A program made the position numbers and the translations under genes. DNA of 64,000 nucleotides from Ostreococcus lucimarinus. Its lineage: Eukaryota. The stretch is from assembly GCA_000092065.1 (NCBI GenBank), contig CP000587.1. The stretch is one strand, 5' to 3'. Of this stretch, positions 386 to 58,000 are shown piece by piece (positions within the stretch are counted from its first letter, which is position 1; each line of letters starts with the position of its first letter). A model generated the notes under the pieces. That model was not told where the DNA came from. It searched no databases and saw only the letters and a program-made list of their open reading frames with translations.

Positions 386-3300
386 ATGGCCTCGCCGTTC
401 GCCGTCCCGCCGCTCCGGCGGCGCGCCGCCGTCCTCGCGGCGTGGGAAACCATCACAGACGTTATCGCGGACGAAGGTGCGCGCGCGCGCGCGCGGTGAC
501 GAGAAAACGACGTCGACGAAGACGAGCACGCGATGTGTCGGATGTGTCGAAAGCGACCTCGCGAGCGTGGACTGACGGACGCTGCGGCGCGACGAACAGG
601 ACTGGCGTCGACGCATGACGTGCAAACGTTGATAAAGTCAATATTTGCTCACGTGCGAGACGCGCGATGGCGGGTGAAGGAGGTGCGGGAGGCGATGGAG
701 ACGGCGACGAGCGCCGCGAGCGGGAGAGACGCGGGATTTCGAAGCGTCTTCGTCGCGGCGTGCGGGAAAGCGGTGGAAAAGGGAGGGTTTAGTGAACACG
801 AGTGTTACGTCGCGAGTCGATTGATGTGCGCCGTGATGAGCGCGATGACGTTGGAGAGCGAGGATGGGTTGTTGGCGAAGTCGCTGGAGACGCTCGCGAG
901 GCTGCGAGCGAAGGGCGCCAAGGCGTTCTCGGCTAAGGCGTTTAAACAGATGGTGCTCGCGCACGGGGGGGATGTGGTTTTGGATAGATACATCGAGCTT
1001 GTGCAAAGTAGTGGTGGGACGAATCCGGTTCTGTGCGCGTTGGCGCACGAAGCGTTCGCCGTGGCCAAAACGACTTCTCGGCGACCAGCCGAGATCCGCA
1101 AGGCGCTTTTGGAGGTGTTTTGTACCGTCGTGCTTGGCGCCGACGCGAAAGTCGCCAAAGTTGGAGTGTCGAGCGAGTCGTTTGCGTCCATTTTGACGAA
1201 TGCTACGAGCGAAGAACTCAACGAGACCTTGCTCCCAAAAGCCGTTCGACAGTTGCGTCGCAGTCCCGAAGCTGTCTTGCCCGCCGTTCTCGGCGCGTTG
1301 AAGACGTTGAGCGCGGACGTGAGCAACATGTGCGCGGAAATGGGGCCGGTAATACTGCCTCTGGCGAAGCACGCAAACGAAGATCGTCGCGCGATGGCTC
1401 TGGAGATCGTAAGCGCCCTCGTGAATGGTTCTGCCGATGCGAGCGTCGTCAAGGAGCACATTTTTGCGCCGTGCACGAGCGAGTTTTCTTCAGGACCTCG
1501 ACCGAAGGAGTGGACCGCTCGCACCGGTTTGTACGCTGTGATTGCGTCCTGTTCGCAGTTGAGCGACCGCAAAGCGAGAGAGTTGCTCAGCGCCGACGCC
1601 ATCGGTGTTCTCTCAGCGGAACTGACCGTGGAAAAGCAACTCGAAGCGAAAGCCGCAGCGCTCAGCGCTCTAACTGCATGGCTTCGTCATGCGAGTGAAT
1701 GCCCAGAATCGCTCGCTAGTCTGGTAAAGGAGGCTTCGAAGGACACGACGGAGCGCTGCTCGACATTTCAGTGCGTAGCACAGGCTTTGCGCGTAAACTC
1801 TGCGCTTCCGGCAGGGCTATCAGGCGTCGTCGCCAACTTGTCTCCGATTGCGGTGGCGGGCAGTGGTAAGCTAGCACTACGTGCCGAGGGCTTAAGCTCA
1901 CTATACATACTTCTGCGCGTTGCAGCAGAAGACCCATCTACTGCTGAAGCGCTGAAGACGAACAAGGTTTGGGATTCTGTCGCGGCGTACTTTGAGCCTG
2001 CGACCATGACACGCTTGGACGACGAGAGTACTGAAATTCTTGCCGCGACGGGTCAGTCCATCATGGCTTTCCACGCCTCACATGCGGCGAAGATGGGGTT
2101 GGTAGATTCGGTGATTCAAGCGATTGCTTTTTTGACTGTGCACGCTCACTCACGAACACGAGCGGCGGCGAGAGAGGCTGTGCGAGGCGCAATTTCTGTT
2201 GGACAACCATCCGTCAAAATGATCCAAGGGCTGCGACATTGGCTCGCTTGGGCCGAGGCTGGAAAGTGGGAGGGTATGATGGACGACACGTTCCCGTCGC
2301 AATACGCCGGTGCTTCACTGATAGCATATTGCGAGTTCAATGAAGACGAGCAAGCCCTGACACTTCCGAATGATTTGATCGGCGAAATGCTCTTACTTGC
2401 ACATCACCCGCTCGTCAAAGCGTCTGATGGCCGACGTGGAGGCGCGTGGTCCGCAATTTTATCGCTCGTGGGGGATAACATCGACGTCGAGGACGCTGCG
2501 ATCGTGTGTAGTACCATTATGGGTGACAAGGGGTTGCGCAGCGAGTCCAGCATGGAACGTTCGTCGGCGCGTAGAGCAATCGTGTCGTTTGCAAGACTGG
2601 GCACTGAGACTGGACGTGTTGTTCTGGACACTATCGTGCCCCGTGCGTTAGAGATGCTCGATACATCGATACACGACGCCCTGAGTGCGAAGGATGTACT
2701 CATCTACAACACAGCACCGGGCTCGCTCTCCACAGATCCCGCGAACAAGCCTGCGGTTTCGACATCGACGCAACAACCGAAGAAGGAATCGAATGTGGTC
2801 TCTTTACGACCGAGCCAGGCATCAGCTGGAGCAAAGAAGACAAGTTCAAAGCCTTCGACGAAAGCGATTGATCCACGAGAAGCAGCGCGACGCGCGCAGC
2901 TAGCCGAAGAAGACACTGTTCGATCGCGAGTCAAGGAAGTCGTCCGCAAGTTTGTTGATGGACTCGAGGTCTTGACTGCTACTTTAGAAGGTCTCGGGCA
3001 TAAAGCGCGTGCGTGTGTGTGCGATATTGCGTATTCGAACGTCTTTCCACTGTTAAAGTCGAAAATCATCCCACAGTCTACGGTTCTGAAAGCAGTAGAG
3101 GCACTCGTGTATTGCGCCGCGGCGAGAGGGGCAGCGATGATGCTTTCGTTTCCACGGGAACGACAAGCCGAAGCTTTAGCCATTCGGTTGGGGGCAATGA
3201 GCTTAAACGGGACGCCCGCACCCGTTGAGATCGGCTTGAACGGTAAACCTGTATCGGTGGACATGCATACGGTTGGATTCGAGAGTCGCATCTTGGGACA

Positions 3301-12145: not shown

Positions 12146-13990
12146 ATGCCGCCGACGCACCGTCGCGCGGCGTCGAGCGCGTCCCTCGACCTTCCCGCGG
12201 GCGACGCGGTGGAGCGCGACGCGCGGCGCGATCGCGCGCGCGCGCGGCGGCGCGCGCGCACGGCGATCGCGCGCGCGGCGGCGTTCGGCGCGGTCCTTCG
12301 CGGTGGGCTGAGCGTGGGGAAAATCGCGCTCGCGGCGACGAGGCGCGGAAGGCGCGGGACGACGGCGGGGAGGGCGCGGAAGGCGGTGCGAGACGTCGCG
12401 TCGTACGCGGCGTTCCTGGCGACGTTCGCGGGGACGTACGTGAGCGCGGACGAGGGCCTGCGAAGGCGGTACGGGGGAGAGGAGAGCAAGGCGTGGCGAT
12501 GCGCGTTGGCGGGCGCGTGCGCGGGGCCGTCGTTGATGCTCGCGGGGTCGGGCGCGACGCATTACGGGCTGGCGGGGTACATATGGGTGCGGTCGATCGT
12601 GCTGCTGACGCGCGTGGCGCAGAAGAGCGAGGATGAGACGATGAAGAGGTTGACGGCGGCGACGCGGATGGAACACGGGGACTGCGCGTTGATGGTGGGG
12701 AGCGCGGCGGTGATTTTGTCGTGCTTCATACTGAGGCCGGAGACGGTGGAACCGGCGTATAAACACTTTCTGGACGTGCACGGGGGGAAGACGAGGGAGG
12801 AGTACGCGGCGCTGCGGACGCTGTGCGAGGCGGGAGGGGATTCGGAGTTGCGCGCGCTGTGCGCGAGATTGGCGATTTCGAATACGTGGTCGGCGGGAAA
12901 GACGGCGCGGGAGATGGCGAATAAGACGGCGGTCGGCGCGATCGGTGCGGGAACCGGTGCGATCGATCGCGCGGAGTTGTATAGGATGATATTTTTCCGA
13001 GGCGCGTCCAACGCTGAGCACTTCTTGTCGCACGTGGTGAAGTCGTTTGCGGCTACGCTGAGCGTGTACGCGCCCGTGTACCTCGTTCCGGCGGCGTTGA
13101 TACACCGAGAGAAGCTTCTGTCGCGCGAGAAAGGGCCGGACTTGTTGTCTAGGATCGCCGTCGGTTCGGCGCGTTCGGCGTTGTTTCTATCGTCCTACGT
13201 CGGCGCGGCGTGGAGCGGAGTGGATTTAGCGAATCGAGCCTTCGGCGGAAGCTGCGACGGTCGTTCGTTAACGTTGGGCGTTTCCATGGCTGGTTTAGCG
13301 ACCTTCATCGAAAAGAAGTCTCGTCGGATGGAGTTAGCGATGTATTGCACGTCGCGCGCGATCGAAACCGCGGCGTTGATGGCGGTTTACCGCGGCTTTG
13401 TGCCGAATTGGATCCAGCGACGCCGCGGCGACATCTTCCTCTTCTCCATCGCCTCGGCGACGATCATGCACTGCTACAACACCGAACGCGACGTCTTCCG
13501 AAGTAAGTACCTTAGCGTGCTCGATTTCATATTCGGCTCGACCGGTCACGATTCGCAAAGCATCTCTCACGCCGCGAGTTATGAGATTTTATTCGAAGGC
13601 AACTTTGGCGAGAGCAAAAGAAAGCCGGCGGCTTCGCTGCCGCCCGGCGGCGAGCGAGAGATGCAACCGATTCGCACGTACGTCACCGAGGAACAATTCC
13701 ACGCCGCGAGTGCGGCGATGAAAGACACGCTGAGTGACGCTAGCGTGAGCGATATCCTCAAGATGTACGGCTTGTACAAACAAGCCACCGTCGGAGACGC
13801 GTGCAACCACCCGCGACCGAGCGTGATGGATCAAAGAGGTCGCGCCAAGTACTCGTCCTGGTCGCAATTCGAGGGCATGAGCGCCCAGCAAGCGATGACC
13901 GGGTATTGCATGCTCGTCGACGACTTGACGACCGCTGGGAAGTTTAAGACCGCCCCGGTCTCGCCCGCGTCATCGACCAACGCGGATTAG
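12146..13990 (+). CDS. TMEM135-like (PMP52/Tim17-family) membrane protein fused to a C-terminal acyl-CoA-binding (ACBP) domain
   Basis: The central region aligns to TMEM135 (LSVYAPVYLVPAALIHR..; FIEKKSRRMELAMYCTSRAIETAA resembles [22 protein letters not shown]). The C-terminal 90 aa form a canonical ACBP domain (LKMYGLYKQATVGDACNHPRPSVMDQRGRAKYSSWSQFEGMSAQQAM). The reading frame is continuous, so I call it a fusion. The N-terminal boundary is uncertain. Confidence 0.7.
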   Translation: MPPTHRRAASSASLDLPAGDAVERDARRDRARARRRARTAIARAAAFGAVLRGGLSVGKIALAATRRGRRGTTAGRARKAVRDVASYAAFLATFAGTYVSADEGLRRRYGGEESKAWRCALAGACAGPSLMLAGSGATHYGLAGYIWVRSIVLLTRVAQKSEDETMKRLTAATRMEHGDCALMVGSAAVILSCFILRPETVEPAYKHFLDVHGGKTREEYAALRTLCEAGGDSELRALCARLAISNTWSAGKTAREMANKTAVGAIGAGTGAIDRAELYRMIFFRGASNAEHFLSHVVKSFAATLSVYAPVYLVPAALIHREKLLSREKGPDLLSRIAVGSARSALFLSSYVGAAWSGVDLANRAFGGSCDGRSLTLGVSMAGLATFIEKKSRRMELAMYCTSRAIETAALMAVYRGFVPNWIQRRRGDIFLFSIASATIMHCYNTERDVFRSKYLSVLDFIFGSTGHDSQSISHAASYEILFEGNFGESKRKPAASLPPGGEREMQPIRTYVTEEQFHAASAAMKDTLSDASVSDILKMYGLYKQATVGDACNHPRPSVMDQRGRAKYSSWSQFEGMSAQQAMTGYCMLVDDLTTAGKFKTAPVSPASSTNAD

Positions 13991-17328: not shown

Positions 17329-18219
17329 TCATGGGGTTCCATCTGTCGTGTTCGTCGTCGGTGAGCGCGCGAACCACGATGGTTCGGGTTGCGCGCGCGG
17401 AAGGCGAACGAAAGCCGCGTCTTCGACGGCGTCGAGGGACGACGCGTCGACGGCGTCGACGTAATCCGCAAACTCAGAAAATCTATACGGTTCAGCCATC
17501 AAGTCTTCGTAATCGTCGTCGCGCTCGTCGATGAGTGGCTCGCCCACGCCGTCGTCAACGTTGTCATCATCCGCCAGTTGGCGCTTGACCCAGCGAACGA
17601 ACGGGTTGGTGTCGGAAAGTCGTCTCCAGTCTTCGTCGCGTTCGCCGCTTTCTCCGTGCGTCAGGCGCTGCACGCGCACGATGGCCGCCCGCGCGCCCTC
17701 GGCCACGATCACTTTCGCTTGCTTCGCGAACTCTCTCAACTCGTCCCTCAGCGTCATCTCTTCTTCGGAGTCCGAGTCGTCCAACTGACGGGCGCCTCGC
17801 GCGTTTCGGCCGCTCGCGCCGCGGCGTCGCTCTCCGAGCGCCCGCGCGCCGCCCAACCCGATCCCCACGTACACCAGCCCCGACACCACGATCAGCGTCA
17901 GCGCGGTAAAAATCACCAACGCCGCCCCGTCCGCGGTTCGCGCGATCGTCGGCGGCGGCGGCGACGGCGGCGGCGGCGGCGACGGCGGCGACCTCGGCGT
18001 CGGCGACGGCGGCGACCTCGGCGGGTGCGGCGCGCGCGGCGCCGGCGGCGGTCGCGGCGGTCGCGGCGGCGCCGGCGCCGGCGGCGCCTCGGGATACTCC
18101 GGATACGGCGGGTACGGCGGCGCGTCGACGGCCGCGGCGCTCGCCATCATCGTCATCGCGATCGCCGCGCGCGCGAGCGCGACGCGACGCGCGCCGACGC
18201 GTCGCGCGCGCGCGCGCAT
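17329..18219 (-). CDS. Proline-rich (HRGP-like) type-I membrane protein with an acidic cytoplasmic tail
   Basis: Signal-peptide-like N-terminus (RVALARAAIAMTMMASAAAVDA). Then a 60-aa Pro-rich block (PPAPAPPRPPRPPPAP...SPPPPT), one TM helix (ALVIFTALTLIVVSGLVYVGIGL), and a D/E-rich tail. The start is chosen at the ATG at 18219. Confidence 0.5.
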   Translation of the reverse strand: MRARARRVGARRVALARAAIAMTMMASAAAVDAPPYPPYPEYPEAPPAPAPPRPPRPPPAPRAPHPPRSPPSPTPRSPPSPPPPPSPPPPTIARTADGAALVIFTALTLIVVSGLVYVGIGLGGARALGERRRGASGRNARGARQLDDSDSEEEMTLRDELREFAKQAKVIVAEGARAAIVRVQRLTHGESGERDEDWRRLSDTNPFVRWVKRQLADDDNVDDGVGEPLIDERDDDYEDLMAEPYRFSEFADYVDAVDASSLDAVEDAAFVRLPRAQPEPSWFARSPTTNTTDGTP

Positions 18220-18331
18220 GGCGCGCTCACGCCCGTCGCATCGCGCCCGCGCGATCGGAGCGCGGAGACGTGCGCGCGCGCGGCGGTGTGCCGCACATCG
18301 CGTCGCGCATCGACACCCATCATCGATCGTC

Positions 18332-18691
18332 ATGGCGACGCTCGAAGAGTTTAACGCCGCCGCGGAGGCGATCAAGGCCGTGAAAGAGGTGCGCCGATCG
18401 CGACGACGATCGCTCGCGCCGACGCGACGACGCGACGCGACGCGACGACGCGATGACTGAGCGAAAACCGCGAACGATGGATAGACGACGAACGAAGAGA
18501 TGCTCGAGCTGTACGCGCTGTTCAAGCAAGCGAACGTCGGAGACGTGAACACCGCGCGACCGGGGATGATGGATTTTAAGGGCAAGGCGAAGTGGGACGC
18601 GTGGAAAAAGCGCGAGGGGACGTCGAAGGAGGACGCCATGACGGCGTACGTCGCGTTGGTCGCCGAGCTAAAGTCAAAGTACGGGAAGTGA
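18332..18691 (+). CDS. ACBP: Acyl-CoA-binding protein (ACBP), two exons: join(18332..18388,18485..18691)
   Basis: Exon 1 encodes [19 protein letters not shown]. The intron at 18389..18484 is 96 nt. It starts GTGCGCC, has a GATGACTGAG branch, and ends ATAG. Exon 2 encodes [68 protein letters not shown]. Joined, this gives a full-length 87-aa ACBP. Confidence 0.85.
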
Positions 18692-19089: not shown

Positions 19090-20460
19090 ATGTCGCTCGC
19101 GCGTCAGGAGAGCGGCGAAAAGGTGCGCGGCCGGGCGTCGACGCGGTTGAAGTTGAATTCAAAACCGCGAATTGAATTGAATCGAGTCTCGTCGAGTCGC
19201 GCGCGGATGGACGATGGACGACTGACGACGCGTGTCGGCGCGCAGGATGCGAATGGCGAGGAAAAACTCGAGCGCGCGTACTCGCCGAGCCTGCGAAGCG
19301 GCGAACACGGCGAGGTGGGGTGCCGGGAAGCGATGGAAGACGCGACGGTGTTGGACGATAACGTCCCGGTGGAGGGCGCGCGGGACGTCGTGGCGTTTTA
19401 CGGCGTCTTCGATGGACACGGTGGACGGGCGGCGGCGGAGTTTTTACGAGATAATCTCATGAAAAATGTGGTTGAGAATGAAAATTTTATGCGCGATCCA
19501 GAGCTGGCGCTGAAGGAGGCGTTTTTGAGGACGGATGAGGATTTCTACGACAAGTCGGGACCGGGCGAGACGAGCGGGAGCACGGGGTTAGCGGCGTGCG
19601 TCATTGGAGGTAAGTTATATATCGCCAATGCCGGGGACTGTCGCGCGGTTTTGAGCCGGAAAGGTAAGGCGATCGATTTGTCCATCGATCAAAAACCGAG
19701 TTCAGTGGGTGAGATGGAACGCATCAAGAACGCGGGCGGTTTCGTGGAGGATGGGTACGTGAACGGGTTGCTTGGCGTCTCGCGAGCGTTCGGGGATTGG
19801 CACATCGAGGGTCTCAAAGGACGTGGGGGCAAAGCTGGACCTGTGACCGTCGATCCAGAGATAGAAAAGACACGCTTGACAGAGGACGACGAGTTCTTGA
19901 TCCTCGCGTGTGATGGTTTGTGGGACGTGTTTAGCTCACAAAACGCCGTCGACGTCGCGCGGGCAAGCCTGCGTCAACACAACGATCCGACGATTACAGC
20001 GAAAGAGCTCGCGGCAGAAGCTTTGAGGAGAGACAGTTCGGATAATATTTCGGTAGTATGCGTGTGTTTGACCCCTGAAGCGCCGAAAAAGGAGACATTT
20101 ATTCGCACTTCTCCGAGCTTGTTGCGTTCGCTCTCGGTCGAAGCAATGTCTATCGTATCAAAAGCCATGACGGATGACGCCAACTCGCCCGCAGTTCCCG
20201 AAGCGTTCGCGCCAAAACGCGTGCAAAGCATTCGGAACTTTGCAGGTCACGGACGAACTGGATCCGATTCCGATTCCATAGCCTCGGATGTCGCGTCGCA
20301 GCCATCCGCCGAACAAGTTTCGGAAGTTTTAGAAAGCATCGCGGCTCTCAACGTGGTGAATAAAGTATCGACTGGGGCGCTCGGTTTAGAGCGTCTGGAT
20401 AGCGCCGATACTTCGTCGGGAGTAGCTAATGAGTTAGACACGCTCGAAGAAGAAGATTGA
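19090..20460 (+). CDS. Protein phosphatase 2C (PPM family)
   Basis: PP2C motifs are present: FYGVFDGHGG, LYIANAGDCRAVL, GLLGVSRAFGDW, LILACDGLWDV, DNISVVCVCL. The start could alternatively be the ATG at 19204 (MDDGRL). Confidence 0.88.
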   Translation: MSLARQESGEKVRGRASTRLKLNSKPRIELNRVSSSRARMDDGRLTTRVGAQDANGEEKLERAYSPSLRSGEHGEVGCREAMEDATVLDDNVPVEGARDVVAFYGVFDGHGGRAAAEFLRDNLMKNVVENENFMRDPELALKEAFLRTDEDFYDKSGPGETSGSTGLAACVIGGKLYIANAGDCRAVLSRKGKAIDLSIDQKPSSVGEMERIKNAGGFVEDGYVNGLLGVSRAFGDWHIEGLKGRGGKAGPVTVDPEIEKTRLTEDDEFLILACDGLWDVFSSQNAVDVARASLRQHNDPTITAKELAAEALRRDSSDNISVVCVCLTPEAPKKETFIRTSPSLLRSLSVEAMSIVSKAMTDDANSPAVPEAFAPKRVQSIRNFAGHGRTGSDSDSIASDVASQPSAEQVSEVLESIAALNVVNKVSTGALGLERLDSADTSSGVANELDTLEEED

Positions 20461-20531: not shown

Positions 20532-21560
20532 TCAGCCAACGTTCGCGTTCTCCATCACGACATCGCACATTTCATAGTAGATCTCCCCTAAACGAGTCAC
20601 CACCGGCGTGGACTCTTCACCTTCGCGAAGGAGACTCACTCGCAAATTAATCACGCTATCTATGAATCGGCCTGGGCGCAAATCTCTCGAGTCCAACCCA
20701 GCCGCCGTCGCAGCGGCTCGTTCGATGCGAGGTTGGAACCCGCGCGTCGTCTTCTTCAGTTTGACTTTACCGCTCGATCTATCGAAGTCTTGATCAAGCT
20801 TATCTCGCGTTTCGTCGAACATCTGCGCCAGCAACGCGCGCCGTTGGGCCACCGTGTTAACCACGACGAGTTCCTTGATGAGCGCGGATTCCGCCTTTGG
20901 AAGCTCTGAAGGCGCGAACGAACCGGAGACGACGACGTCGCTGTACACCCCACTGGCGTCCGCAGCTTTCGACAACTGTCGAGCGGTCTCTCGCACGACG
21001 ATAACTTGGTACAGGAGGTCCCAATTAGGAATCTGTTCCTGAAGTTCGAGCTCGTCGATGAGTTGCGCGGCGGCGCGTTCAATTTTTTCCACGCTCACCC
21101 CCGGAACGTCTACATCCCCCAACGCCCGACCGCCACCCGCGTGCGCGACGCGTATGACTTCAAACCGCTCTTCATTACTCTTCAGCCTCGCCACGAGCTG
21201 CACGACCTGCATCTCATCCGTCAACGAATCCGTCACCGTCGCCAGCGTCTCCTCCTTGATTGCGTTCAACAGCGACACCAATTGCAAATCCCCGCTCGCC
21301 TCACTCGCCCGCACGTACGCCCCCAGCGCGGCCAAAAACGATCCATCCAACTCTTCAAAGTGCGATCGCACCACCGCGCGCAGCACCGCGCGCTTATCCA
21401 CCGCGCTCTCCACCGCCTCTCGCTCGTTCGCCGCGCTCGCCTCGTTCAGCACCTCCGTCGCCGCCTCCTCCAAAAAGATTCCCTCCACCGTCTCTCGTAT
21501 GATCTTATCCAGCACCTCGCTCGCCGCGTCCACGCGCTTCGCCGTGTCGTCGTCTTCCAT
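20532..21560 (-). CDS. Conserved hypothetical protein, function unknown
   Basis: A 342-aa ORF from MEDDDTAK (ATG at 21560) with coding-like composition and no low-complexity bias. I recognise no domain. The ORF-track extension to 21950 runs through the tandem-repeat region and uses a non-ATG start. Confidence 0.5.
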   Translation of the reverse strand: MEDDDTAKRVDAASEVLDKIIRETVEGIFLEEAATEVLNEASAANEREAVESAVDKRAVLRAVVRSHFEELDGSFLAALGAYVRASEASGDLQLVSLLNAIKEETLATVTDSLTDEMQVVQLVARLKSNEERFEVIRVAHAGGGRALGDVDVPGVSVEKIERAAAQLIDELELQEQIPNWDLLYQVIVVRETARQLSKAADASGVYSDVVVSGSFAPSELPKAESALIKELVVVNTVAQRRALLAQMFDETRDKLDQDFDRSSGKVKLKKTTRGFQPRIERAAATAAGLDSRDLRPGRFIDSVINLRVSLLREGEESTPVVTRLGEIYYEMCDVVMENANVG

Positions 21561-21790
21561 CGCGCGCTCGTCCTCGATCGCGTCCGCGCGCGCGTCGCGT
21601 CGCCGCCGTCGCCGCCGTCCCAGAATTCGTCGCGCGCGAATCGACGCGTCGCGTCCCGCGCGGCGCGTCCCGAGCGTCGCGCGCGGCGCGATCGCGCGCG
21701 GCGACGCCGCGGCGAGCATCGCCGGTCGTCGACGCGCGCGCGCGTCGCGGTGTCGCGCGCGCGCCGCGCGGGACGCGACGCGTCGATTCG

Positions 21791-22052: not shown

Positions 22053-22320
22053 GACCGGCCGATCGACCGTCGCGGTCGATCGACGCGTGTCGAGGGCGCG
22101 TCGGCGCGCAGAGCGCGACGCGCACGGCGCGCGACGGCGGCGGCGGCGCGCGCGCGGAGCGCTCGCGAGGGATCGCGATCGCGCGAGAGACGCGCGCGAG
22201 AGACGCGAGAGACGCGCGCGCGAAGCGCGCTTAGGGGGGGGAATTCGATCGACGCCGACGCGGTGCCCAGCGCGTGGGACGCGAGGACGCGGGGCGTCGC
22301 GCGCGCGAGCGCGAAGGGAT

Positions 22321-31740: not shown

Positions 31741-31747
31741 CTGCAAC

Positions 31748-36400: not shown

Positions 36401-38766
36401 AGTTCATCCATCTTCGTCAACCACGTCTTCTCGACCTCAGCCTCTCGAGAAGCGAGAGCAGATTCAAGCGAAATCTGCGATTGCTTCTTCAATGCGTCGA
36501 TTTCGGCATCGTACGCTTGCGCCTTTTCCTTGGCAGCTTTCTCGGCGATCTCTAACGCATTGATTCTAGACTCGTACGACGAGACGAGCTTTTGCGTCTT
36601 TGAAGTTTCGGAATCAAAGAGCGCTTTCAAGGCGCGGCGTTCCGCCGCCATCGAGCGTGTAGCGTTCGCCAACTGCTTCTCAAGTTCGGCTTCGGCCGCG
36701 ACACGAGTAGCCTTGGCCGTGAACTCGAGTTGCGCCGCGAGTTCTTGCTTGGCGTCTTCCTTCAGCTGACGTACTTTGCTCTTGGTATCCTTTTCCATCT
36801 TTTCAACTTTGACGGCGTGCGCCGCGCCGAGGCGCTCCATCTTGCCTGACCAGAACAAGTTCAGCCTTTCTTCGGCACTTTCAATCTCCTTCTTCAAGTT
36901 GTCGCCCGTGAACATCTTCATTTTTTCGGATTCGGACTTGAGAAGATCGAACACCGCTCGTCGCTCATTCTTGGACATCTTGAGTTGCTTTTGAAGCTCC
37001 GCGATGGCGGCATCCTTTTCAGCCAACAGCTCCGCCGTCATTTCGAGCTCTTCTTCCTTCATCTCGGCGACGAGCTGCATCTTTTCAATCTCGTTGAGGT
37101 GAATTTGTTCAGCCACGGCATCGATAATTTCTTGCTTGGCGGCTACGAGATCTTGCGCAGCTCCTTCTTTGACTAGTTCGAGGCTCCTCGCGTGCGCGGT
37201 TTGCGCGGCGGCAGCGGCGCTCTCGTACGTCGCCTTGAGGACAGCCATCTCGGCGCGAATGGCTTCGACATCCTTGGCGCTCGCCGCCTTGGTTTGCTCG
37301 AGGCTGTCAGCGTGCGCCTTTTGGGCTGCATCAGCGGCACTTCGGTACGTCGCCTCTAAGGTCGCCTTTTCGGCCGCAAAGGCGCTCGCGCCGCGCTTCT
37401 CGGCTTCGGATTCGACTTGCTGCATCTTGGCCTGGTGCTCGCGCATGAGTTGCGCGATGGCTTCGGTATGCCTGGCGTCGAGATCGGCGAGCTTCTTCTT
37501 GGCGTCTTCATTTATTTTCATCTCCGCCTCAGTGATCGCCGCGCGCATCTCAACCTTCCAAGCCGCTTCCTTATCGTTCATGAGAAGCTCGAGCGCTTGA
37601 CGCTCCGCGAGAGCCTCGGCAATGGCGCGCTGCAACTCGCGTTCGGCTTCGAACTGCACTTCAGCCACGGCGGCGACGAGTTCGGCGGCGGATGTTTCTG
37701 CATTCGCAGCCGCCTCTTCGAGCTTGGAAATAAGCGATAACTTCTCGGCTTCAATGGCCGTGACCTTGGCGTGCCAGTCCGCGGCTTGCGCCTCCTTGAC
37801 GGAGATGGCTTTTTGAAGCTTGGAAACTTCAGAGTACATCATCGCTCTTTGGGCCTGGTACAACGCCTTGGCGGCGCGCACTTTGGACAATAGATCCTTA
37901 CGCTCGTCCGCAAATTTGCCTTCCATGCCCGCGACCTCAGTCTCGAGCTTCGAGATCGTTTCCTTGAGCAAAGCCGTGTCGCGCTCGTGCGCCTCGCGCA
38001 TGCGTCGCTTTTCGGCTTCAAACTGCGCCTTGGCTTGTTCGAGAGCCTTGGCCTTGTCGGCGGCGTGTGAGTTATTTTGATCGCGCAACTTTGTGATGTC
38101 CATCTGCAAACGGGCGATTTCACGCTTGTGGCGCTCCTCCACGCGCGACATTTCCATCGCAAACTGAGATTGCTTCTGCTCGAGCTCAGCCATCTCGGCT
38201 TCAAACTCGCGCATCATCACCTCGCGAAGCGCCTCGAGGCGTTCGAAAGACTTGGCCCCCCGAGCCATCGCCTGCGCGTGAACTTGCGCGTCGTACGATC
38301 CTTCAAACATGGACGAATCGGCGAGCGTGCGAACCAACCACGCGGCCGCGCACGTCGCCGCGCACGCCGCGCCCGCGCTGAGCACGCACGTCGCGCTCAC
38401 CTTGTACGCTTGGACGACGACGATGGACAACAGAGACCCGAACGCATACGTCACGCACATCGCCAACGCCCCCGGCGCGCTCGCCATCCCGCCAAATTTA
38501 CTCCACACGTACGCCGACACCAGCGTCGCGAGCGTCGCCGCGGACGCACGAATCGCGCTCGCCCCCGGCGTCGCCGCCCACGTCAATCCGCCCGCCGTCA
38601 CAAACGCGTAATCCGCCGCGCACACCGCCCCTACCACCGCTCCCGCCGTGAGCAGCGCCCGCATCGCGGGCGGCGTCGAATTCGGTCCATCATTCGACGA
38701 TCCCGACGGGACTCCCATCGTCGTCGTCGTCGTCGTCGTCGTCGTTTCGTTCGCCTCGTACGTCAT
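33424..38766 (-). CDS. Giant coiled-coil protein (about 1780 aa) with N-terminal TM segments and a C-terminal tail-anchor TM
   Basis: About 1600 aa show A/E/K/L-rich heptad-like sequence with many internal repeats. N-terminal hydrophobic helices (LLTAGAVVGAVCAADYAFV..., ALAMCVTYAFGSLLSIVVV). C-terminal TM segment (VWAYYALGVATAILPRIIAGGL). The start at 38766 is tentative. The ATG at 39075 is also in frame. Confidence 0.7.
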   Translation of the reverse strand: MTYEANETTTTTTTTTMGVPSGSSNDGPNSTPPAMRALLTAGAVVGAVCAADYAFVTAGGLTWAATPGASAIRASAATLATLVSAYVWSKFGGMASAPGALAMCVTYAFGSLLSIVVVQAYKVSATCVLSAGAACAATCAAAWLVRTLADSSMFEGSYDAQVHAQAMARGAKSFERLEALREVMMREFEAEMAELEQKQSQFAMEMSRVEERHKREIARLQMDITKLRDQNNSHAADKAKALEQAKAQFEAEKRRMREAHERDTALLKETISKLETEVAGMEGKFADERKDLLSKVRAAKALYQAQRAMMYSEVSKLQKAISVKEAQAADWHAKVTAIEAEKLSLISKLEEAAANAETSAAELVAAVAEVQFEAERELQRAIAEALAERQALELLMNDKEAAWKVEMRAAITEAEMKINEDAKKKLADLDARHTEAIAQLMREHQAKMQQVESEAEKRGASAFAAEKATLEATYRSAADAAQKAHADSLEQTKAASAKDVEAIRAEMAVLKATYESAAAAAQTAHARSLELVKEGAAQDLVAAKQEIIDAVAEQIHLNEIEKMQLVAEMKEEELEMTAELLAEKDAAIAELQKQLKMSKNERRAVFDLLKSESEKMKMFTGDNLKKEIESAEERLNLFWSGKMERLGAAHAVKVEKMEKDTKSKVRQLKEDAKQELAAQLEFTAKATRVAAEAELEKQLANATRSMAAERRALKALFDSETSKTQKLVSSYESRINALEIAEKAAKEKAQAYDAEIDALKKQSQISLESALASREAEVEKTWLTKMDELERAHKVQIERINADHAKAIAESQSKLKSAEAAQAEAIKAKMAQLETDLAKTTKSLEDQLAAAREDAARQLAAEKSRTAEAIQAAAIQAEDGSAAKKELDALTAKFSSTESEYKSTVQKLEAEIKALELKAAAAGTDAKAQFEAEIATLNAKLKEAEEEIKELESQLSEAKSAAANKVAELEKHFADEMHELRSAFDAQAKEGVAAVSSERDALSARIAALEAEHDQNLSLAKADAEKAKASAVQSLADVDAQISARLAEQKAELDAKLAAQIEELRKRTDADVAAASKALADAKAQYEADVAALKAQNARDLTAAKEAAESADAVLLSKISKLETEQKSALQKAKEQVEAEYGAKLTKAQAEIDALKAKLADAEKQNAAQAEKELADALTKAALIPGLQQQVDELTNSLTSSKASYESTLNKLQQDHAAEIDKLNKDHVAALKDASDASDLKAQISALEAQLQSEKDKLAKSLTDAEAQRAELEASSKTALERARSQVIAQAEDQRKKLEQMFLDESAKARAAFEAEVAEYEKLVKQATADLKKAHADELSSIVAQHKSELSQALAKVDTTSAGKVTALEAEKAKLEKAIADTNAALTKASADAKSASNDAASAKAALEKLEQEVASLTNARDAALARASELEKEVATLTKNAVDPKELAALASARDAALARASELEKEVATLTKNAVDPKELATLASARDAALARASELEKEVATLTKNAVDPKELATLATARDAAQARVAELEKSLAAIAEEKSVLANKLSSVDASKAAEMQKLKDELAQLQADLTKALANAQNQRASEIARLTADFESKYASMQQKHESEIDELSRQALVDVSSAEKRADVAEAEIQRLRSETKDVATYKSQIETNEKQLIIVREKLGATEKKLADFLALYGEERKVLEESRKIADDLDRIKRRYATSMEIDESTIDEISSKVEKQLAAADDGEKMQAMMDGRAKGDTVVDVRDIPVWAYYALGVATAILPRIIAGGL
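34207..34512. repeat. Near-identical 102-bp x3 tandem duplication inside the coiled-coil gene (34-aa unit DAALARASELEKEVATLTKNAVDPKELAxLASAR)
   Basis: Three consecutive 102-nt units differ by only 1-2 nt. A fourth degenerate unit follows. Confidence 0.85.
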
Positions 38767-39169
38767 CCGCAGCGACCCGTCGCTCGACGCGCGCGTCTCC
38801 GCGCGTCGCCCTCGCGTCGCGCCTCCCCTCGCCCATCCGCCCTCGCCCGGCCTCGCGCGCGCCGCGCCCGCGCGCGCATCGCTCCCGAATCCCATCCCGC
38901 GCGCCGTCGCGCCTCCTCGCACCACGCGCGCGCGCGTCGTCCGTCCCGGCGTCGCCTCGATCGGTGACGTCGCGCGCGTCGTCCGTCGTCCCGCGCGTCC
39001 CGCGCCTCGCACCGCATCGCTCGCCGCGCGCGCGCCCGCGAGCGCGCGCATCGACGTCACACCGCGCGTCGGCATCGTTCACGCGTCGCGCACTCGCGCG
39101 CGTCGACGCCGACGGTCGCCGCGCGCGCGCGATCGCGATTGTCACCCATCGCGCCGCGCATCCAGCGTG

Positions 39170-39542: not shown

Positions 39543-40347
39543 ATGGCGAGCCTGTTCGCGCGATGCACGCCGGGGACGTACGACGCGCTCGAAACGGCGG
39601 CGAAAGGGATGATGCACGCGCAGCTCGCGTGCGCGCTGCTCGGGACGTGCGGGTGGCAAGGGACGGGCTACCTCGCGGGAGTGGCGGCGATGTCGTGCTT
39701 CGGGTTGGTGGCCATCGAAACCGGCAAGAGTGGGCTGCTGAAGGTGCGCGAACGGCGAGGCGAACGGCGAAGCGGGTTTGAACTGAATTGACGCCGCGAG
39801 GCGACGCGACGCGACGCGAACGGGAGACTGACGGCGGCGGATTTCGACGCGCGACGCGCAGTACACGGCGGCGAGCTGCTGGTACACGCTCTGGCTCGAC
39901 ATCATATGGATGGCGTCGTACGCGACGGATAACATCAACAAAAACAACAACTGGAACTCTGGACATAGGCGAGGGAACGAGCTTTGCGTCGGGATGGTCG
40001 TGTTGATTTTCATGCTCAGGTTCCCGCAGTTTTTCGTGTGGCAAAAGCTGTGGCACTTAGGATTCAAGGCGAGTGGCGGTGCCGGGGCTCAACCCTCGAG
40101 ATACGTCGACTTCGCCACGAACCCGGTGGCGCGAGGTCAAGAGATGGGTTCGCCGAGGCCTCAAGGCGACGCGTTCGCGCAACCGCCTCGAGCGACGACA
40201 GCGACGCCGTCGTCCGCCCTCGCGACGGCCCCGGTGTCGCCCTCGCCCGCGCCGCCCGCCCCCGTGGTGAGCGCGCCTTCACCGCCGGCCCCAATCTCCG
40301 CCCCGGCCGTCGTCTCGTTCACTCCGAGTGGACCTGGCAACGTGTAG
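39543..40347 (+). CDS. Small membrane protein with a Pro/Ala-rich C-terminus, two exons: join(39543..39743,39862..40347)
   Basis: Exon 1 encodes MASLFARC...GKSGLLK. The intron at 39744..39861 is 118 nt. It starts GTGCGCG, has a GAGACTGACGG branch, and ends CGCAG. Exon 2 continues in frame (YTAASCWYTLWLDIIWMASYATDNINKNNNW..., hydrophobic). Codon usage in exon 2 is less GC-extreme, as in real genes. Function unknown. Confidence 0.45.
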
Positions 40348-41377
40348 GCGACGAGACGTGCCACGCTTACCCACGCGTGTGCGTGAGTATAATCATCCCG
40401 TTTGTGATAATCCAACGGAATAATACAATATATTTTCGAGCGAACGATTCTCTGATCCCGCGTCTGCGTTGCGCCATAAATTGGTTCGCTATAAATTGGT
40501 CTAATTACAATCACGTTTCGTCAAAACGTTCCGCGTCGCCGGCGCTCAACCGCCGCAGTTCAATTCTTCGTCTTCCGCGGTCGGATTCTACGCCGTGGTC
40601 TCTTTAGGTCTGCGATAAAGCATGATGTGCGGCTCCGGGCGATGGCTGCGCACGCGCGGTGTAAAACAAAGTCAGTCGGCGTCGCGCGTCGCGTCCGCGG
40701 CGCCGGCCTCGCGCGTCGAATCGAAACGACAGCCATCGCTCAAACGCATCCAAAATCACCCGCGCGCGCACTCGATACGTACATCGCGTAGTGTACCCAA
40801 CCTCGGGATTGTTGCACGCCCAATCCGCGCCATTCGGTCTGCGCGCGCGTCTTCGTCAGTCCTCCTTCGTCTCGCGGGGGAAAGAATCCCTCCTTCGCGC
40901 GCGCGTCGTCGACCCGTCGCGTCCTCCCCCGTCTCCATCCCTCGCGCGCACCTCGGTCAACAACCGATTCTTCGGCAACAACTTCGCGATATCCGGCGGC
41001 AACACCACGTGTCTGCGGTCGCGCGCGCGCGCCGTCGTCTCGTCAGTCTCGCAACGTTCGTTTCGTCGCGTCTCGTTTCGATCGTTTCCCGCGTCGCCCG
41101 TCGTCGTCGTCGCCGTCGCGCGCGGCGCCGCACCTGTACTCGTACACGTCGTCGTAGTATTTTTCGCTGTACTGAATCTGCGGCATCGCGCGCGCGGCGT
41201 TCGATCGCGCGGGTCGGTGTGCGGGACGTCCGACAGCTCGCTTTGAATTTTCCTTTCCGCCGCTCCGCTTCCGGGTGTGCGACATGGTCGACGTCGGCGC
41301 GTCGTGGTGCCCGGTTTCGTCGCCGCGAACGAGGCACCACCGCGCGACCGGCGTCGCCGGCACTCGCCCGCGCGACG

Positions 41378-48287: not shown

Positions 48288-48607
48288 CGCGATCGCGACG
48301 CGCGCGCGCGGCGAGGCTCGACGCGCGCGCGAGGCGCGCATCGCGCGCGAGACGCGCGCGCGTCGACGCGCGCGCGCGCGAGACCGCGCGTCACGACGCG
48401 ACGCGCGCGCGGCGTCGGTGAGTGCGGTCGGACCGACGCGCGGCACACGAGCGCGCGCGCGCGAACGACGGCGTCGCGCGCGGTCGCGAGCGCGCGAACG
48501 CGCGGACGCGAACGCGCGCGAACGCGCGGCGGGCGCGAAGGGCGCGCGCGCGGTCGCGCGCGCGACGGGGAGACGCGAAGGGGGACGACGTCACGAAGGC
48601 GAGGAAG

Positions 48608-49520: not shown

Positions 49521-51424
49521 CTAAGCGGCGGACGTCAGCACTTCGCTCGCGAAGTACCGCACATCCGCATCGGGGTCGCTTTGAAGACCGACTAGAATAG
49601 GTCTGATTTCGCTCTGGAATTTTGCCACATCAATCGCCTTGATGAGCGGAGAGAGCGCCTTGGCGGCGTTGAAGCGCACGTTGGGCACGGTGTCCGTCGT
49701 AGCATGCTTGATGATTGGCAAGATTTCCCCAAGAATCACTTCTTCGCCGACCGCTGGGGCGAGAAGCGACACCGCTCGTAACACAGTCAAGCGATAGAGG
49801 TAGTGGTGTGACGACATGAGTTCCTTGATGCGTGGAAAAATGTATTCGAGCGCCCAGTCGGCTCCGAAAATCTCCGTCAAGCGGAACAAGTTATTCGCCG
49901 CAGCTTCGCGAATGGAATAAACTGAGTCTTGCAACCATTGCAGACAGAGCGAGTTTAGTAAATCATCACCGCTGTCTGATCCTTCGTCCTTTTGGAACAA
50001 GAAGGTCGTGCCGATCTGTTGCGCTAACACCGGAATGTATTCGATGATAGCTAATCGAACTCGCCAGTGCTTGTCTTCTGCTAATTCTTTGATCGCCGGA
50101 AGAAGCTCAGTAGAAAGCATCTCCACCCCGATTACCGTGTTCACTTGCTCGAGTTTGCTGATGATGTTCAGTCGCACATCCGGAAACTCATCCTTGAGCA
50201 AAATGAAAAACACCGGGAGCAGCTTTTCCACCGTCGTGTCTTTACCCATGGTTGGGGCCAAACCCAATACAGCCTCCGCAAGCGCGGCTCGCACGTGCTG
50301 AGACGAATCATTCGCCAGTTCGTGTACTTTCGGTAAGATCTTTTCCGCGGAGTACACCGCACCCGCGAGTGAGCAAAACTCTGAAATCTTACCGGCGGCG
50401 GAAATTCTAACTTCTCCCTCTGAGTCGCCGAGCAAGGCTACGTACGCGTCAAATAATCCCTTTGCCGCAACCTCTGCGCCTACTACGTCGCACATCTCAT
50501 ATATTTGCTGCGCCACCGCGTATCGAACGCGCCAACTCTTGTCGGCGGCGAGCTTGAGCACTATAGGGACGATCTTGTTCGCACAATCCGTCGCAGAGAG
50601 CAACTTGCCTAAAACCACGCAGTCCTCGACGACGAGCAACCGAACCGAATCTTGATCATCACTCGTGAGCGCCGCGAACATCGTCAGCAACTCGTTCACG
50701 ATGAAATCTCCCGAGCTCACTATGGCAATTTTTCCCAAGTTCTGCGCCGCCGCGCGTCGAACCATGGGCGTCTCGTCGGCGCACAAATCTCTAAACATCC
50801 CGGTCAACGTGTTACGCAACTCCAACTGCGACTCCTCCGAGCGTTCAAACGCGGTCGCGAACAACCCACACGCGCTCACTCGCGCCGTAAACCAATCACC
50901 TTGCGCTAATCTTTCGATCAAAGGCACAAAATATTTCCCAATCCCTCCCGGCGTCATCGCTCGACCCACCGCGCACGCCGTCTCCACCGCCTTGGCCCGC
51001 ACCACCGTCTCCTCTACCGTTATCAGCGTCTCCAACGGCGCCAGGATCACGTGCACGTGTTCCTCCCCGCCGACCGCATCGATCAACGTCGCCAATTCTC
51101 CCGCGATCGCCAGCAGGCACTCATCATCCTCGTCGTCCCGCTCCGCCAAAAACGGCACGAGTTCGCTCCGCGCCCGCTCCGCCCCCAGCGCCTTGGCGAT
51201 CGTCCCCAGCTTCGCGATCGACTTCAATCGCAGCTCCACGTCCTCGCTCTGCGTCGAGCGCGACGAAACGCGTCCTCACCATCGTCAGTCCTCGCGCGCT
51301 TGCCCCGCGCCGCATCGCCGCGTCACCGCGCCGCACTTTAAATCAAATCATCGCCTCGTCCCGATCGCGCGCGCGCCCTCGCGTTATCGCCGCCCGCGCT
51401 CGCGTTCGCGCACCTTGAGGTCAT
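49521..51424 (-). CDS. PP2AA: PP2A scaffold (A/PR65) subunit, HEAT repeats; proposed join(49521..51246,51414..51424)
   Basis: Matches PR65 throughout ([19 protein letters not shown]...[14 protein letters not shown]...). The main ORF has no in-frame ATG at its 5' end. The track's M is GTG. An 11-nt micro-exon ATGACCTCAAG at 51424..51414 is followed by a GTGCGCG donor, a GGACTGACG branch at about 51278, and a CAGAG acceptor. Joined, this gives [11 protein letters not shown] in frame. The exon 1 placement is inferred. Confidence 0.85.
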
Positions 51425-51591: not shown

Positions 51592-52070
51592 ATGAATCAA
51601 CCGAGCCGCGCCGATCGGTTCGTCCTGCCCGAGGGCGAGCGCAAGCTGTCGTACGAGCGCGACACCAAGGTGGAGAACGCGGGGACGTTCGTGCTGCAGC
51701 GCGAGGACCACACGATTGGAAATTTGTTGCGAATGTGCGTGCGAGCGCGCGCGCGAAGCGAAAGACGCGGCGGGATGACGCGCGAATCGCGCGCGAAATG
51801 ACGCGCGGGATGATGCGAGCGCGAACGACTGACGATGACGACGACGGACGGCGCGAGAACTGTAGGGAGCTGCACAAGAACCCCGACGTGGTGTTCGCCG
51901 GGTACAAGAACCCTCACCCGACGGATCATAGAATCGTGCTCAAGGTGCACACGAACGCGAATACGACGCCGGTGCAGGCGCTGAGGGATGCGGTGACTAA
52001 TTTGCGAGCGGAGGTGGGCGATTTGTCGCAACAGTTTGCGGATGAGATTAACGCGCTTCGACGCGAATAA
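51592..52070 (+). CDS. RPB11: RNA polymerase II subunit RPB11 (POLR2J-like), two exons: join(51592..51734,51866..52070)
   Basis: The spliced 115-aa product ([48 protein letters not shown]|[30 protein letters not shown]...) aligns to POLR2J over its full length. The intron at 51735..51865 is 131 nt. It starts GTGCGTG, has a CGACTGACG branch, and ends TGTAG. It splits a Met codon (AT|G). Confidence 0.88.
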
Positions 52071-52172: not shown

Positions 52173-52173
52173 G

Positions 52174-52205
<32 letters not shown>

Positions 52206-52206
52206 T
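52173..52206. repeat. (TGCG)n microsatellite, about 9 units, in the convergent 3' intergenic region
   Basis: The run gtgcgtgcgtgcgtgcgtgcgtgcgtgcgtgcgtc is directly visible. Confidence 0.85.
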
Positions 52207-52402: not shown

Positions 52403-52414
52403 TCATAATCCTCA

Positions 52415-55041: not shown

Positions 55042-58000
55042 ATGTCCGCGCCGCGCGCGGGGGTCGCGCGCGGCGCGCGAAACGCCGTGGGCGCGCCGCG
55101 ATGGACGCGCGGACGCGACGGCGACCGGCGAAAACCTCTGGCGACGCGCGCGCGCGCGCGCGACGACGGCCGGCGACGACGCGCGACGGGGACGCGATCG
55201 GCGCTGACGCGCGGGAGCGAGGGCGTTGAGGTGGCGAAACTGCAGCAGCGGCTCGCGGACGAGGGAATCGAGGACGGGGGCGCGGTCGATGGGTGCGTGA
55301 CGGCGATGAGCCGTTTATTTGAATTCGCGGCGCGCGCGCGGGACGCGGGACGCGAGGGCGCGAACGGGGAGGGCGGACGCGCGATCGAGCGGACGAGGAT
55401 GGAGAGGAGGGCGTTTGTGGACGATGGGGGGCGTTCGATGGGGAGACGCGACGCGGGATGACTGACGAGACGACGAGACGCGCGCGCGGCGATAGGACGT
55501 TTGACGAGGCGACGGAGCTGGCGGTGAAGACTATGCAGACGCGATACGGATTGCCGGCGAACGGGCAGTGGGGGGCGCTGGAAAGAATGATGTTTGAGGA
55601 GGTTGGGATTCATACCGATACGCCGAGGTTGGAGGCGTTGGCGCCGGCGAAGATGGGGACGCTGGCGGCGCGCGTGAGCGCGAGCGGCGGCGCGAGAGAG
55701 ACGCTGGCGCCGACGCTCGGCGCGAGAGACGGGGTGATGAGCACGTTCGGTTCCGCGGTCGCCGGCGCGGCGCTCGGTTTATCCGCGGCGTTTGTGATCG
55801 GTGCGGCGGATAACGCGCGTCGAGGGGGAGGCGTGCACGATTTCGTCGAAGACGCGCGAGTCAACTTGCTCGGGTTGGCGGGACTGTTTAAACCGTCGAA
55901 TTTCAAACGCCCGACGCGCGCGACCGCGGCGTACGATGACGACGTGGGTGGCGAGCAATACGAGGACAGACGTGATACGCGACGAAACGATGGTTGGGCG
56001 GACGATGACTGGCGCGGAAACGATCCCAGGCGCGGACCGGACGGCGGCATGCCGCCGGGCGCGAGCGAGGAGTACTACGGATACGACGCCCAGTACCACA
56101 CCTCGCGCACTCGCCGCTTGATGGCGGGCGCCGTATCCGCGGTGGTGGAGAGCGAACGACCGAAGCAGCGTCAAGGAACGTCGCGGCGACCGGGTGGAGG
56201 CGGTGCCAGGGCGCAGCGCGCACTCGCGGGCATGGATTTACAGCGCAAGCAGCAAGAGTTGGTAAACTCTCCCGAGCTCGAAGTTGAAGTCGAAGTCGAA
56301 GTCGGGGCGTCTTCGCGACCGATGGCGACGATGATGCAGCGCGTGCGACAAGGCTGGGATGCGAGCTTAGATGCGGTAGGCAACGTCATTCCGGATGCTA
56401 TCCCGCTCATCGGCAACGGGAGCGATTTCACCGCGCGAGCGCAACGCGAGCGCGACTTGAACGCTCGGCTCGCCGAGGCGCGTTACTACGCCGAGCTGGA
56501 ACAGCAAAAGCGCCTTAAGGCTGAAAAGGCGTTCAAGCAAAGTCATCAAAAGTGGCTCGATGCGCAGGCGGCGACGCGCGAGGTGCGCGCCCAGGCAGCG
56601 GCCACGGCGGCAAAATTGGGCGAACTCGAGGAGCGTCTGTTTAGCGAAGACATCTTCGACGACCACCCGGTGATGAACAAGGTGACGCAGTTGGAGAATT
56701 TGCTCAAGCAAGAAGCCAGAGAAGACAAAACGGCGGAACAACTGAAGAGTGAGCTCACTCAACTCGAAATGAACACCACGAGTCGCGTGAAGGATCTCGA
56801 GGAACAGGTCGCCGAGTTGCAACTCGAGCTCGAGACGCGCCCGGATTTACCGCGAGACATCTCCGCTCGCTTGGAAGCTCTGGAAAGCGCGATGACGAGC
56901 GGCACGTCTTACGATGCGGAATCGGCCACGGCGCGCGCAACTGGCTTGCAACAAAGCATTTCAGACGTGGGGGATGCGCTCGTGGAACTTCGCGACGGCA
57001 TGCGAGACGAGATGTACAAGGTGCAGAGCGAGCTCAACAACATCCATCCGCTCATGGATCACGGCGCTGGAAGAATTGATATTCTCTTCGCTAAACTTAC
57101 CGCGTTGGAGCACTCTGTGGATGCCATCAGCGACGGTGCGGCTTCGCAAATCGGACGCTTGTCTGCACAAATCGAACGACTGGAGAAGGCCCTCGCGGCG
57201 AGCTCGGGCGTCGTCTTCGAACCGTTCCCTGAGATCGAAGATATTGCCATCGAAGATCCGGCTCCGATGGTGGAGGAATTCGTCGAGAAAGAAGACGAAG
57301 TCACCACCGACATGTTTGCCCCGGTCGAGGAAGAACTCGCGGTTGAGGAAGACGTCGCGAGCAGCGTCGACAGCGCCGCGACGGATTTCTTTAGTTTGTT
57401 CCAAGACTCGGCGCAAATCACGCAAGCTATGCCGACGGCTGAACCGCCCCTCGAAATCGCGCCGATGCAAAAGGAAATCGTCAAAGAATCCGGCGTTTTA
57501 CCGCGCATCGCGACTGGGCGCGAGATCATGATCCAAGGTTTCCACTGGGAAAGCCACAACTTGGATTGGTACAAAATTGTGCAAGACAGACTTGGCGAAA
57601 TGAATCAAGCGGGATTTACTCAAGTTTGGTTGCCGCCTCCGGCGGATTCTCTCGCACCGCAAGGCTACTTGCCGCGCAATATGTATTCGTTGAATAGTGC
57701 GTACGGCTCTGAACAGGCTTTGCGAAACCTCATCGCGAACTGCAAGGAGCACGACGTTTTGCCCGTGCTCGACGCCGTGTTGAACCATCGCTGCGCCACG
57801 CACCAGGGCGCTGGGGGCAAGTGGAACCGTTGGGAAGGAACTGGTATGGACTGGGGTGAGTGGGCCATCGATAATAGGAATCCTGACTTCGCAGGTCAGG
57901 GTAACCACCCGACGGGCGATGAGTTCTCGGGGGCGCCCAACATCGATCATACGAATGAACGCGTTCGCAGCGACTTGGCCAAGTGGTTCCAATGGTTGCG

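Follow-up and report, generated by a model that had tools for sequence, protein, structure and literature searches.

Which introns interrupt the genes of the picoeukaryotic green alga Ostreococcus lucimarinus CCE9901 (order Mamiellales) on a 64,000 nucleotide (nt) stretch of nuclear DNA, and what do the signals that these introns share reveal about their recognition? For this stretch, called the window in the following (GC content 61% throughout), the original prediction had described a common set of splice signals in introns of GCN1, ACBP, a membrane protein, PP2A-A, RPB11 and an alpha-amylase. Altogether, ten introns in seven genes were identified here, the six listed before and four further ones, which were exposed by listing every ACTGA[CG] in the window; one of the four is located in PP2C and three are located in CKS1. 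Seven introns had been announced and six listed, and the PP2C intron is likely the missing seventh. These elements are very probably ordinary U2-type GT-AG spliceosomal introns of the high-GC "normal" chromosomes of the intron-poor O. lucimarinus genome, with signals that are unusually constrained.

All ten introns start with GT and end with AG, the ends expected for U2-type introns, and they are 96-203 nt long with a GC content of 62-72%. Nine of the donors begin with GTGCG; C at position +4 and G at position +5 are found in all ten, followed by a pyrimidine at +6 in nine (C in six, T in three) and a G at +7 in seven. The complete GTGCG[C/T]G donor is present in 7/10 introns. The branch motif GACTGA[CG] occurs in every intron, with ACTGAC in nine and GACTGACG in eight of them; a CTRAY-type branch site 10-50 nt before the acceptor is thus present throughout as CTGA[CG], the distance from the branch A to the 3′ end being 17-36 nt. 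Six acceptors read CGCAG. U12-type signals (donor [AG]TATCCTT, branch TCCTTAAC) were found in none of the ten introns. Joining the exons gives continuous frames homologous to known proteins. The products of ACBP, RPB11, CKS1 and the membrane protein are identical to RefSeq entries of O. lucimarinus CCE9901, encoded on a 783,246-bp contig, and Pfam domains cross the junctions of ACBP, RPB11, amylase and CKS1.

Reading and measuring all sites of the six introns proposed earlier showed that they exist and begin with GTGCGCG, GTGCGCC or GTGCGTG as described. Five of the coordinate pairs are exact, and the sixth, that of PP2A, is 2 nt off, since its acceptor is at 51249 (CAG) and not at 51247 (GAG). 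ACTGAC, or ACTGAG in the case of ACBP, precedes a CAG or TAG acceptor in all six at a measured distance of 24-36 nt, not 24-38 nt. The length range of 96-203 nt was correct, as were the in-frame joins of GCN1, ACBP, RPB11, the membrane protein and amylase; the PP2A join as originally written runs into a stop after 68 amino acids (aa). The proposal that the joins restore homology holds for ACBP, RPB11 and amylase through Pfam domains across the junctions, and for PP2A through an intron-less orthologue if the acceptor at 51249 is used. The donor is less rigid than had been claimed, as two CKS1 introns in the same window start with GTGCGGC and GTACGTA.

The RPB11 intron (51735..51865, plus strand; 131 nt, phase 2) has the donor GTGCGTGC, the branch site CGACTGACG 33 nt from the 3′ end and the acceptor GTAG. 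The unspliced frame stops after 69 residues; the spliced 115-aa product equals XP_001418684.1, and the Pfam domain RNA_pol_L_2 (1e-27) crosses the junction. This protein shares its 90%-identity cluster with a product of an MMETSP transcript and with XP_022839410.1 of O. tauri, which likewise has 115 aa. Four Logan contigs (L006-L009), which are 99.7-100% identical to the window, lack exactly the 131 nt of the intron. An RPB11 orthologue on a contig from a TARA metagenome (L011) carries an intron at the same codon with the signals GTACGTG, GTGACTGACG and GTAG.

For PP2C, the intron (19123..19245, plus strand; 123 nt) shows the donor GTGCGCGG, the branch site CGACTGACG 20 nt from the 3′ end and the acceptor GCAG. 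Its length is a multiple of three and it is without an in-frame stop, which results in a 456-aa read-through open reading frame (ORF). Both the spliced product of 415 aa and the 456-aa read-through product are present in the protein collection. The exact exon-exon junction was found in five public Logan contigs (L001-L005) that are 99.9% identical to the window. Altogether, the spliced form is represented by seven Logan contigs, versus 326 contigs from many sources for the unspliced form.

These intron-less contigs were taken as RNA-derived on the basis of their missing introns. An RNA origin is favoured because two different introns are missing in a single run series (SRR28369xxx) and because unspliced PP2C is found on 326 contigs versus the seven with the spliced form.

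The PP2A-A intron is located at 51249..51413 on the minus strand (165 nt, phase 0; donor GTGCGCGA, acceptor CGCAG) and has its branch site GGACTGACG 36 nt before the 3′ end. Only the acceptor at 51249 gives an open product, which is 603 aa long and starts at the ATG at 51497; with the acceptor at 51247 the intron ends in GAG and translation from the same ATG stops after 68 aa. Two contigs of a related species (L010 and L011; Mamiellales, 52-56% GC, about 77% nucleotide identity) carry PP2A without an intron at this site, and the protein they encode matches the 51413/51249 join exactly. The same species has the RPB11 intron, so that intron presence differs between relatives at one locus and agrees at the other. 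Neither the 603-aa product nor the 578-aa product implied by 51247 had an exact match in the protein collection. A homology search with the spliced PP2A N-terminus did not return the O. lucimarinus exon-2 product itself, so absence from that index is uninformative. A Logan protein homologous to this N-terminus (P0041) shows many systematic Ala-to-Val and similar changes against the PP2A of the window; the substitution pattern suggests C-to-T converted (bisulfite-type) reads rather than real divergence.

CKS1 is a four-exon gene on the minus strand (41186..40590), and its spliced product of 75 aa equals XP_001418912.1 and matches the Pfam CKS domain end to end (8e-37). Intron 1 (41013..41133, minus strand; 121 nt) has the donor GTGCGGCG, starting GTGCGGC with a G at +6, the branch site AGACTGACG 30 nt from the 3′ end and the acceptor CGCAG. 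Intron 2 (40839..40951, minus strand; 113 nt) combines the donor GTGCGCGC with the branch site GGACTGACG 17 nt from the 3′ end and again CGCAG. In intron 3 (40646..40782, minus strand; 137 nt) the donor GTACGTAT is not of the GTGCG type but starts GTACGTA; the branch site CGACTGACT lies 26 nt from the 3′ end and the acceptor is CGCAG. Only this GTACGT donor yields the sequence ...WVHYAIHRPEPHIM..., which is identical to XP_001418912.1. A GTGCGCG at 40771, 11 nt downstream, was rejected as donor of this intron, as its use gives a product without homology.

The ACBP intron (18389..18484, plus strand; 96 nt, phase 0) has the donor GTGCGCCG, the acceptor ATAG and the branch site TGACTGAGC 24 nt before the 3′ end. 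The spliced 87-aa product equals XP_001418675.1 residue for residue, and its Pfam match (5e-32, residues 5-78) crosses the junction. Without splicing, translation stops after 42 aa. The intron in the gene for the membrane protein, which is uncharacterized (39744..39861, plus strand; 118 nt, phase 0), combines the donor GTGCGCGA and the acceptor GCAG with the branch site AGACTGACG located 30 nt before the 3′ end. It involves a frame shift, and its removal links two open frames into a 205-aa product (ATG at 39612) identical to XP_001418681.1. A Pfam search with this protein was negative, and neither RNA data nor comparisons with relatives lent support to its intron, which is backed by the RefSeq match, the logic of the frames and the signals. 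The contigs L015 and L016 from close strains have too few differences to be informative about the introns of the membrane protein or CKS1.

GCN1, which was identified by Pfam, has its intron at 477..599 (plus strand; 123 nt, phase 1). The donor is GTGCGCGC, the acceptor is ACAG and the branch site GGACTGACG precedes the 3′ end by 24 nt. Once this intron is removed, a first exon of 30 aa that begins with the ATG at 386 continues into a frame of 2586 codons; the unspliced reading stops after 37 aa. A divergent relative with 66% nucleotide identity (contig L014) has a GCN1 intron of 116 nt at the same codon and in the same phase, with the signals GTGCGGC and CGACTGACG followed after 21 nt by TAG, and its first exon is of equal length and has the AWE motif in common with that of the window. 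The amylase intron (55293..55495, plus strand; 203 nt, phase 2), with the donor GTGCGTGA, the acceptor ATAG and the branch site TGACTGACG 30 nt before the 3′ end, lies between a first exon of 84 codons (ATG at 55042) and a frame of 1066 codons, which are joined across a frame shift. The Pfam domain PG_binding_1 (1.3e-12, profile positions 2-51 of 57) crosses this junction. A contig from a strain with 98.7% identity (L012) has 16 differences within the intron, a divergence of 7.9% versus 1.35% overall, and indels with a net gain of 8 nt, which is not a multiple of three; donor, branch site and acceptor are intact. The RefSeq amylase XP_001418685.1 is a 632-aa partial model, and the spliced model (55042..58697) has 1150 aa. 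The first exon and the intron are thus not part of the public annotation, and the splice grammar recovers a predicted exon missing from RefSeq, that is, an 84-aa N-terminal extension which would complete the peptidoglycan-binding domain.

Searches for RNA evidence were negative for GCN1, both with the spliced N-terminus in a homology search and with the exact junction in JGI metagenome contigs. Exact 26-nt sequences spanning the exon-exon junction of GCN1 or amylase had no match in the JGI metagenome contigs, and homology searches with the two spliced N-termini returned no transcripts, only ORFs of genomic contigs that read into the intron or start inside it. An exact look-up of the spliced GCN1 (2617 aa) and amylase (1150 aa) proteins in the protein collection gave no match.

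The consensus of these introns is already known from the same species. In the section 'The Peculiar Case of Ostreococcus', Irimia and Roy (2008; PLoS Genet 4:e1000148, PMC2483917) reported the atypical donor consensus GTGCGTG (4.8 bits) for 319 non-chromosome-2 introns of O. lucimarinus confirmed by expressed sequence tags (ESTs). ACTGAC was present in 87.2% and GACTGACG in 66.5% of these, the branch-to-AG distance was about 20-35 nt and CGCAG was preferred; the median length of all 2148 predicted introns of this species was 111 nt. The grammar of the original prediction is the one published in 2008. The introns of the window agree with that non-chromosome-2 class in donor, in branch motif and its spacing, and in host genome, the window with its 61% GC lying outside the low-GC chromosome 2 region: both sets come from one species and share the donor consensus (7/10 GTGCG[C/T]G here) and the preference for CGCAG (6/10 here). 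GACTGACG is found in 66.5% of the introns there and in 8/10 here, the spacing is 20-35 nt and 17-36 nt, respectively, and the lengths are similar (median 111 nt there, 96-203 nt here). Nothing substantive differs; position +6 is more often a C in the window, and two introns lie outside the 20-35 nt spacing (17 and 36 nt).

A preference for GTGCGY donors across most of the genome has also been described for the Mamiellales as a group (Roy and Bowser, 2022; bioRxiv 10.1101/2022.06.08.495308), which together with the 2008 study agrees with the suggestion in the original prediction that the donor is a lineage signature. The donor class is the same here, and the relatives represented by L011 and L014 have ACTGAC together with the donors GTACGTG and GTGCGGC, respectively. 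That work addresses the small nuclear RNA (snRNA) side of recognition, whereas the window holds no snRNA gene. A near-invariant branch site, a strong atypical donor in which +4 is a pyrimidine, and a limited range of branch-to-AG distances are shared with intron-poor yeasts (Saccharomyces cerevisiae with GTATGT and TACTAAC; Yarrowia lipolytica), but the motifs themselves (GTGCGY and GACTGACG), the high GC content of 62-72% and the G-rich, T-poor sense strand are different. The introns of chromosome 2, the outlier chromosome (BOC1) of Mamiellales, belong to the same genomes and are presumably spliced by the same spliceosome, but they are 40-65 bp long and AT-rich, and conserved donor or branch motifs are not detectable in them. 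These traits are absent from all ten introns, and no such intron was found in the window.

The set of signals consists of the 5′ splice site GTGCGY(G), the branch site GACTGACG and a (CG)CAG or TAG acceptor approximately 17-36 nt past the branch A, without a polypyrimidine tract. U1 snRNA (ACUUAC) might pair with GUGCGY at +1, +2, +5 and +6, while +3 would form a G·U wobble and the mismatch of +4C would be tolerated. The GUAGUA of U2 snRNA would pair with ACUGAC including one G·U wobble, leaving the branch A bulged, and the acceptor would be the first suitable AG within a narrow fixed distance downstream of the branch. The mismatch at +4 raises a different possibility, namely that GTGCGY is recognized through a co-evolved U1 snRNA in which a G faces +4C, or through a second, dedicated spliceosome. 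The C at +4 is indeed invariant in the ten introns and mismatches the canonical ACUUAC of U1, such a U1 was considered by Irimia and Roy (2008; PMC2483917), and Entamoeba and Mastigamoeba have compensated U1 snRNAs. However, a U1 model agnostic of the pairing region was applied to five Mamiellales genomes including O. lucimarinus, and all candidates keep the standard pairing region (Roy and Bowser, 2022); the comparison of U1 complementarity proposed for this genome has thus already been published, with a negative outcome. Moreover, GTACGT donors occur alongside the others, within one gene in the case of CKS1 and also in an orthologue (RPB11 of L011). A modified U1 or a second spliceosome is therefore quite improbable, and recognition of U2-type introns by the standard machinery is preferred.

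A second alternative is a mobile introner-like family of the kind found in Micromonas pusilla, of which the introns would be copies, such that the motifs are shared by descent and not by splicing constraint. The similar lengths (96-203 nt), the common ends and similar low-complexity GACGCG and CGCG tracts would fit such a family, introner elements are known in the sister genus, and one relative has no intron at the PP2A site. But an all-against-all BLAST of the ten introns returned only matches of 10-29 nt, either CG-rich low-complexity sequence or the motifs, and no family-wide alignment; the full-length mutual alignment typical of Micromonas introners was not found among them. In addition, the GCN1 and RPB11 introns are located at the same codon in divergent relatives, with interiors that cannot be aligned. 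An introner origin is accordingly very improbable.

To determine how often the motifs occur by chance, we used dinucleotide-preserving shuffles of the window as null and counted both strands. GTGCG[CT]G has 96 copies (80.7±8.8 in shuffled sequence), GTGCG[CT][GC] has 137 copies (128.9±10.7), 8 of which are real donor sites, and ACTGAC has 15 copies (19.7±4.6). In 31 kb of solid coding sequence, 26 copies of the donor heptamer (0.83 per kb) were counted on the sense strand. Single motifs are not enriched, and the donor heptamer on its own has no discriminating power. The composite grammar, defined as GTGCG[CT][GC], GACTGA[CG] 30-250 nt downstream and YAG 10-40 nt further, gave 10 matches versus 1.15±1.09 in shuffled sequence, with 5 as the highest value in 300 shuffles. 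The motifs occurring at the same frequency in exons and background had been named as a finding that would speak against the introns, and this applies to the donor taken alone but not to the composite. Nine of the ten copies of GACTGAC are located in introns, 17-36 nt before a frame-joining acceptor, and introns account for about 1% of both strands of the window together; the branch motif and its spacing contain most of the discriminating information. The composite grammar retrieves every intron found in the window (ten) with one false positive, a match at +53757 that is antisense within a kinase gene, joins no meaningful frames and was rejected as a chance occurrence. The view that the motifs co-occur by chance in GC-rich DNA and that the introns are artefacts of stitched open frames, for which the background level of the single motifs with 26 heptamers in coding sequence, the many long spurious open frames that a high GC content produces and the false positive at +53757 could be cited, has a negligible probability, given the composite count, the identity of spliced products with RefSeq proteins and complete Pfam domains, the precise lack of two introns in assembled contigs and the same consensus in 319 EST-confirmed introns (Irimia and Roy, 2008; PMC2483917).

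Several observations weigh against the interpretation as ordinary spliced introns. Strains that have lost the RPB11 and PP2C introns are an alternative source of the intron-less contigs. Transcript-level evidence was obtained for none of the GCN1, ACBP, membrane-protein, PP2A and amylase introns, nor for the three CKS1 introns. The contigs L006-L009, which are without the RPB11 intron, keep the PP2A intron, which is located approximately 300 nt away on the opposite strand. Therefore, the case for PP2A splicing is one of homology; the retention could be due to inefficient splicing, to an assembly that includes antisense or unspliced RNA, or to DNA of strains without the RPB11 intron. Finally, the scheme of U1 and U2 pairing is drawn from general knowledge of the spliceosome, and an Rfam scan of the window returned no snRNA gene.

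Recognition might involve a further layer past the three published motifs. In nine of the ten introns, purines predominate between branch site and AG (pyrimidine fraction 0.30-0.47), and a classical polypyrimidine tract is absent. The sense strand of the whole introns contains 42% G and 11.6% T, versus 32% G and 19% T in coding sequence. Outside the introns ACTGAC is present in 6 copies versus 20.2±4.5 expected, a value reached in none of 500 shuffles, which do not preserve codons. This approximately three-fold depletion hints at an avoidance of cryptic branch sites. Because of the G-rich and T-poor sense strand, the lack of a polypyrimidine tract and the depletion of ACTGAC, the acceptor might be set by the branch site and distance without a conventional U2AF65/polypyrimidine step, combined with genome-wide selection against cryptic branch sites; we consider this rather unlikely.

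A relaxed scan of the window, in which a GT[AG]NG donor, a YTRAY branch and any AG were accepted and candidates were filtered by coding potential, and a codon-usage map of the window revealed no additional credible intron. Genes whose N-termini appeared to be missing (at 22368, 14039 and 29049) have ordinary ATG starts. A two-frame candidate from the codon-usage map (17332..18226, minus strand) turned out to be a single proline-rich ORF without an intron; this single-exon gene (17332..18156, minus strand) encodes a proline-rich N-terminal region with PPxP repeats, one hydrophobic segment and an acidic tail.

The window contains several repeats. A unit of 46 nt is repeated five times at 21827..22058 (95% match) within a 92-138-nt periodic array that starts at 21791. 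The 46-nt array overlaps the 5′ end of an ORF on the minus strand (20532..21950) and lies upstream of a plus-strand gene starting at 22394; each unit includes the CAT of a potential minus-strand ATG. A 102-nt unit is present three times at 34202..34510 (98% identity), corresponding to 34-aa coding repeats in a gene for a protein of 1883 aa (33424..39075, minus strand). A long CG-rich low-complexity array is found at 48294..48564 and a perfect (GTGC)8.5 microsatellite at 52173..52206, shortly after the stop codon of RPB11; these two tracts coincide with, or lie close to, the ends of several public contigs. A tRNA-Gly(CCC) gene at 31670..31741 was called by both Rfam and ARAGORN. A second tRNA-Gly(CCC) of 92 nt (12160..12251), called by ARAGORN alone, is located inside a CG-rich repeat and is probably spurious.

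The convergent tightening of splice signals in intron-poor genomes, which gives these introns their evolutionary meaning, was published in 2008, and the result for the window is of little value as a discovery. Its value is in annotation, where weak gene models are corrected or extended. The protein collection is without a model that matches the spliced N-terminus of PP2A. Gene callers of the prokaryote style used on marine metagenomes routinely produce read-through products from Ostreococcus genes, as seen for PP2C, which amounts to a systematic mis-annotation.

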